Notes under the pieces: model-generated
Databases searched by the model: none
What the model was told of the DNA's origin: nothing
What the model saw: only the letters and a program-made list of their open reading frames with translations
DNA from: a phage
Direction: 5' to 3' (one strand)
Length of the DNA stretch: 64,000 nt
Assembly (NCBI GenBank): GCA_020619395.1
Contig: GCA_020619395.1_4860.1
Program-made: the position numbers and the translations under genes
Shown here: piece by piece, positions 33,267 through 33,758 of the stretch
Layout: each line of letters begins with the position of its first letter
Numbering within the stretch: position 1 is the first letter of the stretch

Positions 33267-33758
33267 ATGAAACGTCTATTTATCGTATTCGCGATTATAA
33301 ACCTGTTGGCCGGTTGTGTTCAGTCGCCAAGCAACATAGGACAATTTAGCGCCACACCAGTAAAGAATCACGACTTGGTGATTTATACATGCACAGGGAC
33401 GCAGGAGAAGTTTATAGACTACCGTCCGGTTCTGGACAATCTACAGATGATGCCGCGGTCAGTAACAGTAATGGATGTGGGTGCAAACTGGGTAGCAACG
33501 TGGGACGGTGGCAAACTAGAGTCACCGATGATGTTTAAAGATACAATTGGCAAAATCGACGGGAATGTTAACACCACCACAGGTGAGCGTTATTACCGTA
33601 TTAATAAAACCGTAAACGATAGCCCCACTTACTCTTTTTCGGATGTGAACCCGTATACCGGCGAAGGTAAAGGGATGACATTCTTTCGCTGCAGCAGCGG
33701 GTTTATCGGTGAAGTTCCTACTCCGATTACGATTGTTCCGTTAGAAGAAAATAAATAA
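33267..33758 (+). CDS. lipoprotein (163 aa)
   Basis: MKRLFIVFAIINLLAGC lipobox; isolated plus-strand gene flanked by terminators. Confidence 0.6.
   Translation: MKRLFIVFAIINLLAGCVQSPSNIGQFSATPVKNHDLVIYTCTGTQEKFIDYRPVLDNLQMMPRSVTVMDVGANWVATWDGGKLESPMMFKDTIGKIDGNVNTTTGERYYRINKTVNDSPTYSFSDVNPYTGEGKGMTFFRCSSGFIGEVPTPITIVPLEENK

Follow-up and report, generated by a model that had tools for sequence, protein, structure and literature searches.

A conserved lipoprotein gene beside adhesin genes in SPN3US-like jumbo phages: predicted product and possible role in the host envelope

The gp159 gene and the family of its product

A gene for a predicted lipoprotein lies on the plus strand of the phage contig GCA_020619395.1_4860.1 (NCBI GenBank assembly GCA_020619395.1), whose 64,000 nucleotides are referred to below as the window. 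The features of the gene and of its surroundings are collected in Table 1. The open reading frame (ORF) begins with ATG, its coordinates are exact, and it is the orthologue of gp159 of phage SPN3US (SPN3US_0159 / ACQ60_gp107); the name gp159 is used here for the gene and protein of the window as well. The protein is 100% identical to its counterparts in SPLA1a and phage 1252 and 95% identical to that of SPN3US, and the orthologues bear the annotation “hypothetical protein” everywhere. The PHROG match of gp159, phrog_9559 (E 3e-81), is likewise without annotation. At the nucleotide level, 801 bases around the locus matched 34 phage records with 93–99.6% identity, and every one of these is an SPN3US-like jumbo myovirus (genus Seoulvirus); the Salmonella phages 1252 and SPLA1a were the best matches.

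The initial annotation had described a lipobox protein at this position, with lipoprotein signal prediction as one way to check it, and the signal was found in full. The N-terminus, MKRLFIVFAIINLLAG followed by CVQSP, has a positively charged n-region, a hydrophobic core of 10–11 residues and the lipobox L-A-G-C, whose Cys (Cys17) is invariant. It conforms to the lipoprotein pattern of a positively charged n-region, a hydrophobic h-region and, by about residue 35, [LVI][ASTVI][GAS]C, and the KD19 hydropathy maximum of the precursor (1.81) falls within the signal peptide. In a six-frame lipobox scan of the window the gp159 ORF was the sole match, and the 240-kb genome of SPLA1a, a near-identical phage, contained two plausible lipobox ORFs only. 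Under the +2 sorting rule for lipoproteins, which is established for Enterobacteriaceae, sorting to the outer membrane is predicted because the residue after the lipid-modified Cys is Val and not Asp. These features suggest that gp159 is a bacterial-type lipoprotein with a predicted location in the outer membrane. The mature protein would comprise 147 amino acids (16.3 kDa, isoelectric point 5.1, 6.8% Pro); it contains no transmembrane segment (KD19 maximum 0.94), and its C-terminus, …VPLEENK, is charged. The GC content of the gene was ~0.45, compared with 0.43–0.49 in the neighbouring genes, and the base composition gave no sign of recent acquisition.

Homologues of gp159 form a small family, whose members were found in Seoulvirus, in several genera of Erwinia jumbo phages, in the E. 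coli phage Goslar and in a few metagenomic relatives. The protein is 90–100% identical in 33 records of Salmonella, E. coli and Proteus phages, 44–62% identical in ~27 Erwinia jumbo-phage records, and 32% identical to the Goslar homologue. When 1.84 billion cluster representatives were searched exhaustively with HMMER, 14 matches were obtained, of which ~12 were genuine, and the genuine matches that were inspected are lipoproteins of 134–188 amino acids. Two matches were set aside: P0021, a long low-complexity repeat, and P0017, a protein of 5404 amino acids with nine short matching stretches only. No close relative was found in bacteria among 185,579 species-representative genomes, and a scan of IMG/VR returned five gp159-type loci, all from lineages already found. 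These searches show that the family is restricted to phages, and gp159 is a real, conserved gene.

The lipid-bearing Cys, Cys42 and Cys142 are invariant across 12–16 family members, and, counted without the lipid Cys, 9–10 positions are invariant in these members, including a few Gly, Arg, Tyr and Ser residues. The family diverges about as fast as the neighbouring genes. No match was found to the models of Pfam, NCBIfam or PADLOC or to the sequences in the PDB, and gp159 gave no match to a Pfam or NCBIfam model of lambda Bor/Iss, TraT or other named lipoprotein families at E values up to 0.01–1. Since UniProt already labels some of the Erwinia-phage homologues “Lipoprotein”, the bare lipoprotein observation is not new. 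What is new here is the definition of the family with its invariant cysteines, the barrel model, the linkage to fibre modules across lineages, the late-type promoter class and the exclusion of a spanin reading, all presented below.

Several SPFM records (LR535901–LR535917) matched the gp159 locus only in 13–14 short pieces and gave odd “homologues” of 166–172 amino acids that matched in many short stretches. These oddities look like sequence-quality or frameshift problems in the records and not like biology.

Table 1. Features of the gp159 locus and related sites in the window
Feature	Position	Strand	Remarks
gp159, lipoprotein coding sequence	33267..33758	+	163 aa including signal peptide; stop 33756-33758; from the ORF list
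Signal peptide, codons 1-16	33267..33314	+	n-region MKR, h-region LFIVFAIINL, lipobox L-A-G preceding Cys17
Cys17 codon, predicted lipid-modified first mature residue	33315..33317	+	invariant alignment column
Predicted all-β barrel domain	33345..33698	+	~residues 27-144 of precursor; AlphaFold2
Invariant Cys42 codon	33390-33392	+	within first long strand
Invariant Cys142 codon	33690-33692	+	within last strand
Disordered C-terminal tail (…GFIGEVPTPITIVPLEENK)	33699..33755	+	predicted; no transmembrane segment
Shine-Dalgarno-like GAAAGG	33255..33260	+	6 nt 5' of ATG; read from sequence
Promoter-like motif TAATATGA	33208..33215	+	TATG core 33211-33214
Promoter-like motif TAGTATGC for gp160	33172..33179	-	matches the gp159 motif class
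Bidirectional intrinsic-terminator hairpin	33761..33791	.	13 bp, 8 G-C pairs, T-runs on both strands
Second bidirectional terminator hairpin	32552..32575	.	between gp161 and gp160
gp160, 175-aa DUF7941 virion protein	32616..33143	-	divergent from gp159; Pfam DUF7941, E 4e-11
Convergent block gp158-gp156	33884..35992	-	facing gp159
gp158, M15-like peptidase	33884-34399	-	
gp157, DUF1353	34409-35050	-	
30-aa transmembrane ORF	35058-35150	-	single hydrophobic segment MQYDNDDWPKGLMSILLGLMVLTMLVRYMT; between endolysin and gp157
gp156 endolysin, GH108 and PG_binding_3	35339-35992	-	
gp155, 725 aa, nearest adhesin-type gene	36035..38212	-	Pfam GP38 E 6e-18, DUF7941 E 5e-23
CAGAYAGATGTTAT / AGATAGATATTATC motif sites	3863-3876, 9452-9465, 61477-61490	-	

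Transcription unit and genomic neighbourhood

The G+C-rich hairpin downstream of gp159 begins 3 nt past the stop codon, is common to the convergent gp158 and scores as a terminator on both strands. Its fold of -29.6 kcal/mol corresponded to z = -5.4 versus shuffles, and equivalent hairpins were found 3' of the homologues in phages Asesino, Wellington and Goslar and in the relatives designated L005, L006, L007 and L008. Directly upstream, no terminator was present in the 123-bp spacer (33144–33266), which is a divergent promoter-like region common to gp159 and gp160. Because the second bidirectional hairpin lies beyond gp160, the two terminators bracket the gp160/gp159 pair and not gp159 alone; of the terminators that the initial annotation had placed on both sides of the gene, the downstream one was confirmed and the one directly upstream was not. 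The isolation of the gene on the plus strand was upheld, as the flanking gp160 and gp158 both lie on the minus strand. It is only the inversion of gp160 that leaves the gene alone there; without it, gp159 would close the long plus-strand block 12717–32534.

The predicted transcription start of gp159 is G33214, located 53 nt 5' of the ATG. In SPLA1a, TAGTATGA, which has the TATG core, is enriched between genes: 18 of its 43 copies fall in intergenic DNA, which makes up 4.6% of the genome, and copies stand 20–60 nt 5' of the tail sheath, baseplate, gp170, gp160 and gp159 genes. Upstream of the homologue, TATGAC is kept in Asesino and Wellington at a similar distance, and TATG is likewise present in L022, Goslar, L004 and L006. 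The motif of gp159 is of the TATG class and not of the AGATAGATATTATC class, which is also enriched between genes in SPLA1a, with 18 intergenic copies, for example 5' of an RNA-polymerase subunit gene. For the non-virion polymerase of phiKZ, the late promoter is TATG, whose G is position +1 (PMC4666361). Because the motif class is shared with the tail sheath and baseplate genes, and TATG is late in phiKZ, we infer that gp159 is transcribed on its own and expressed together with the late, structural genes. A scan for sigma-70 promoters gave 3 matches versus 3.5 expected, a result that is irrelevant here because these phages transcribe with their own RNA polymerases. In many lineages, the gene is a self-contained unit with a TATG motif and a terminator.

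Motifs of the TAGTATGA type stand back to back in divergent intergenic regions 5' of structural genes (12675–12685, 9956–9963, 33172–33179 and 33208–33215). The word is also depleted, with 19 copies of TAGTATGA at one mismatch versus 42 expected and 16 copies of TATGAC versus 31, a pattern expected if the word works as a promoter and is kept out of genes. Another motif of ~14 nt, CAGAYAGATGTTAT / AGATAGATATTATC, is strongly conserved 45–115 nt 5' of many small or non-structural genes and has 4 matches in the window (3 of them exact) versus 0.75 expected; it is probably a distinct, perhaps early, promoter class of a phage-encoded RNA polymerase.

The position ascribed to the gene by the initial annotation, between what it called a RiPP-like cassette and the lysis and paralogue block, agreed with our analysis, in which radical-SAM genes lie at 29087–31358 and the block starts at 33884, and so did its linkage to adhesin genes: gp160 is divergent from it, gp155 with its GP38 domain lies 2.3 kb away, and fibre modules adjoin the homologue in relatives. 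In Asesino, Wellington, L007 and L022, as in the window, the homologue is divergent from the 175-aa DUF7941 gene gp160. Those four relatives share the block of endolysin, tiny transmembrane ORF and gp157 that faces the homologue, with gp158 in some lineages; gp158 is present in L007 and L022 and absent from Asesino, Wellington and Goslar, all of which keep the lipoprotein. None of the gp159 neighbours in the window is shared by Goslar and two Goslar-like contigs. A module of a 175-aa gene, a long fibre gene and a Caudo_TAP chaperone gene is followed at once by the lipoprotein gene in Goslar and L004, and the same order, with a DUF4376 chaperone, was found in L008; the 175-aa gene of the module carries DUF7941 in L004 and L008. 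Elsewhere, the lipoprotein gene stands between DUF7941 fibre-like genes (L006), after three DUF7941-led gene triplets (L007) or directly 3' of a 1375-aa ORF (L005). No endolysin gene was found near it in Goslar-type phages. The adhesin module is the sole constant genomic partner of the gp159 family.

A candidate DUF1353 partner in Goslar was rejected, as gp087 equals gp157 in length and is not homologous to it. Within 28213–32534 (+), the two radical-SAM genes travel with gp162 and the DUF4376 gene gp161 in Asesino, Wellington, L007 and L022, never more than a few kb from the genes for the lipoprotein and the lysin.

The genes facing gp159 suggest an alternative, in which the protein is a lysis-associated factor, that is, a late outer-membrane lipoprotein that would help to break down the envelope or set the moment of its breakdown, either as an atypical, outer-membrane-disrupting partner of the endolysin block or as its regulator. 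The gene is convergent with gp158, gp157, the 30-aa transmembrane ORF and the endolysin gene and has a terminator in common with this block, the same facing arrangement recurs in Asesino, Wellington, L007 and L022, and the promoter motif is late-type. The lipobox is a further likeness to o-spanins, and the Rz1-type proteins among them are, like the predicted gp159, phage outer-membrane lipoproteins encoded close to an endolysin gene. We nevertheless consider a lysis role unlikely. No gene for a transmembrane protein is adjacent to gp159, overlaps it or is embedded in it on the same strand, and no Rz1 match was found in Pfam. A globular β-barrel of 147 amino acids with 6.8% Pro and no C-terminal transmembrane segment, as modelled for gp159, is unlike both o-spanins, which in the Rz1 type are short and Pro-rich, and u-spanins. 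In addition, Goslar-type phages have the gene away from the endolysin, and a separate, widely conserved pair of a transmembrane protein and a Pro-rich lipoprotein, a better match to the spanin architecture than gp159, is encoded at 190947–191945 of SPLA1a. Identity as an o-spanin was ruled out by the position of both flanking genes on the opposite strand, by the lack of an adjacent transmembrane ORF, with no adjacent, overlapping or embedded i-spanin, and by the globular model; identity as a u-spanin was ruled out by the hydropathy of the mature protein, which leaves no C-terminal transmembrane segment, and by the charged C-terminus.

The pair in SPLA1a (OR413578.1) consists of a 169-aa protein with an N-terminal transmembrane segment and a helical, Pro-rich periplasmic part (190947–191456, +) and of a 159-aa lipoprotein with a Pro-rich start, in which LLTG precedes the Cys (191466–191945, +). 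The lipoprotein is kept in 73 phage records, including CR5, Derbicus and Phobos. Annotated in no record, the two look like a separated i-spanin/o-spanin pair. Asesino and Wellington have ORFs of 34–37 amino acids at the same position as the 30-aa transmembrane ORF of the window, which could encode a small membrane protein belonging to the lysis block. The product of gp158 matches the endolysin PHROG 894 and, weakly, Peptidase_M15_3; the text of the SPN3US essential-gene paper names it among the virion proteins that tailless heads lack (PMC5105663), and it may for this reason be a tail-borne cell-wall hydrolase.

Predicted fold and comparison with known systems

AlphaFold with five close sequences gave an unusable model of gp159, with a predicted local distance difference test score (pLDDT) of 36. 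A usable AlphaFold2 model of the mature protein required an alignment of 16 diverse sequences and reached a pLDDT of 83 and a predicted template-modelling score of 0.75. This model is all-β, with 11 strands followed by a disordered tail, and mature gp159 is accordingly predicted to be a lipocalin-like β-barrel. As the two invariant cysteines of the mature domain lie in the first long strand and in the last strand, a Cys42–Cys142 disulfide that closes the barrel is plausible. The pLDDT of the tail falls below 50 at mature residues 132–137, with block means of 46–49, and the alignment showed that the tail differs in length and sequence between lineages. A Foldseek search of the model against the PDB returned nothing significant and no close solved relative; against a viral library, it returned mainly other uncharacterised phage “lipoproteins”.

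The fold searches gave resemblances at low Z to lipocalins, YceI, nitrobindin and lipid-binding barrels. These resemblances would suit a different effect on the envelope, in which gp159 binds a ligand or lipid in the manner of a lipocalin, or acts on an outer-membrane or a flagellar machine to tune the host during the long jumbo-phage cycle. A target that seems conserved across hosts, and the lack of a family assignment anywhere, are in line with such a role. We regard it as doubtful: it leaves the persistent placement beside adhesin modules unexplained, no ligand-binding residues can be named, and it is a residual category and not a positive case.

A barrel of this kind also brings to mind an inhibitor of cell-wall hydrolases, similar to MliC/PliC (PF09864) or T4 Spackle, which would be anchored in the outer membrane, face the periplasm and guard against the tail lysin of a superinfecting phage or against premature action of the phage's own lysins. 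Like E. coli MliC, gp159 would be a lipoprotein of the outer membrane whose small, antiparallel β-barrel has one Cys near each end; the barrel of gp159 is predicted to be the larger of the two, at 11 strands and ~120 residues compared with 8 strands and ~90 residues. A weak local hhalign pairing of YTC with YQC and of TGERYY with SGARYT was observed, and the gene adjoins gp158, the M15-like, reportedly non-head virion protein, close to the endolysin gene. The comparison with an alignment of 111 MliC sequences by hhalign, however, was not significant (probability 0.5%, E 0.11), and none of the 16 family members matched the Pfam MliC model at E values up to 1. The MliC motifs of the inhibitory loops, SxSGAxY and YxxxTKG, are absent from gp159. 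In the fold comparison, where no PDB entry was significant, generic barrels such as Cap15 and OmpW outscored MliC. Finally, Asesino, Wellington and Goslar are without gp158 yet keep the lipoprotein. An inhibitor of this type is therefore, in our judgement, very improbable.

Profile and family searches revealed no homology of gp159 to T5 Llp, Cor, Bor, Rz1 or MliC. The cor gene of T1 and N15 is a lipoprotein gene placed at the end of a tail-fibre and chaperone module, and the location of the gp159 homologue directly after the fibre and chaperone genes in Goslar, L004 and L008 is a likeness to Cor as known from T1, phi80, N15 and HK022. In contrast to Cor, gp159 matches only phrog_9559, with no exclusion-family PHROG and no Pfam model, is about twice as large, and belongs to strictly lytic, nucleus-forming jumbo phages.

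T5 Llp is a lytic-conversion lipoprotein that inactivates FhuA. Both Llp and gp159 come from virulent phages and have a lipobox signal peptide; llp is monocistronic and divergent from the host-recognition gene oad, as gp159 is divergent from gp160; and Llp is a non-virion protein, as is predicted for gp159, which would likewise reside in the outer membrane and face the periplasm. Homology was rejected, since hhalign aligned the signal peptide only and found no further sequence or profile similarity. The two also differ in that mature Llp has 61 amino acids and mature gp159 has 147, and fold searches with the β-barrel model of gp159 did not retrieve Llp. Moreover, llp is early, whereas the motif of gp159 is late-type, and the receptor in the T5 system is an outer-membrane transporter, whereas the reported receptor of SPN3US is the flagellum (PMC11428620).

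Possible role in the envelope of the infected cell

Mass spectrometry of SPN3US virions bears on the location of gp159. Table S4 of that study lists gp138–155, gp160 and gp167–171 and has no row for gp159; rows for gp155 and gp160 are present, and gp160 is abundant both in virions and in tailless heads (PMC5105663). The table was machine-read, and because it omits gp158 too, although the text names that protein, the absence of gp159 from the virion is suggestive and not airtight. The missing row is consistent with export of gp159 to the host envelope.

We propose, with a probability of roughly one in three (about 0.35), that gp159 is an envelope-modifying lipoprotein for exclusion or progeny protection, similar to Llp and Cor in its action and unrelated to both. 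The lipobox with its invariant Cys, the all-β model, the lack of a virion row, the phage-only family, the synteny with adhesin modules, the precedent of T5 llp/oad for the divergent layout, the self-contained transcription unit and the better spanin-like pair elsewhere in the genome speak for this proposal. The protein would be made in the late, structural phase by the non-virion RNA polymerase of the phage, and the precursor would be exported by Sec and then lipidated at Cys17 by Lgt, LspA and Lnt. Lol would then deliver it to the outer membrane, to be anchored in the inner leaflet, and it would act there as a non-virion lipoprotein of the infected cell. The envelope could thereby be altered such that particles of the same group would be unable to bind to infected cells or to inject into them productively, and the same block would hold for envelope debris after lysis, so that progeny would be saved. 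As the primary receptor reported for SPN3US is the flagellum (PMC11428620), the target would have to be other than the filament; candidates are a secondary outer-membrane receptor, the tail-penetration step and a flagellar basal component. For the same reason, the receptor masking suggested by the initial annotation is unlikely if taken literally, because the receptor is flagellar, and a lipoprotein predicted to face the periplasm at the outer membrane cannot mask it.

Several observations weigh against exclusion or progeny protection as the function of gp159. Comparisons with Pfam, PHROG and T5 Llp showed no homology to any characterised exclusion protein, and the reported flagellar receptor is itself a point of this kind. 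In virulent phages, exclusion genes of the classical kind are expressed early, and the promoter class that gp159 has in common with the tail sheath and baseplate genes suggests late expression. Late expression still fits progeny protection, and it would favour the shielding of progeny from infected cells and debris over a block to early superinfection. The family is also kept across phages of Salmonella, Erwinia and E. coli with differing adhesins; such steady conservation across hosts argues for a conserved envelope target and not for a receptor-specific blocker. Lastly, the gene faces the endolysin block in four lineages, an arrangement that would suit a lysis role equally well.

On a broader and more tentative view, gp159 might be the founder of a new class of envelope effectors in nucleus-forming jumbo phages (Chimalliviridae of Enterobacterales), namely a late, disulfide-stapled β-barrel lipoprotein of the outer membrane that blocks reinfection or protects progeny through a conserved envelope component and not through a lineage-specific receptor. 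If this were true, it would be the first exclusion system described for Chimalliviridae, with a fold unrelated to those of Llp, Cor, Imm and Spackle. In the literature searched, we found no description of the lysis and exclusion systems of phiKZ-like jumbo phages, and a 2026 review of jumbo phages mentions neither lipoproteins nor spanins nor superinfection. Among phiKZ-like jumbo phages, a group under development for the biocontrol of Salmonella and Erwinia, SPN3US serves as the genetic model. A conserved protein that these phages make for the host envelope would bear on mutual interference in cocktails of related jumbo phages, on the survival of progeny that might adsorb to debris, and on the cell-surface step that follows flagellar capture.

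The adhesin-type genes near gp159 provided a further observation. The paralogous virion-protein genes on the minus strand (36035–55989) and gp160 share an N-terminal DUF7941 domain, which relatives fuse to DUF285 and tailspike (NCTSP) domains, and genes of 175-aa DUF7941 proteins stand directly 5' of long fibre genes in relatives. According to Table S4 of the SPN3US study, gp138–155 and gp160 are found in tailless heads and gp167–171 are not (PMC5105663). Instead of tail fibres, the DUF7941 virion proteins may be fibres or adhesins attached to the capsid.

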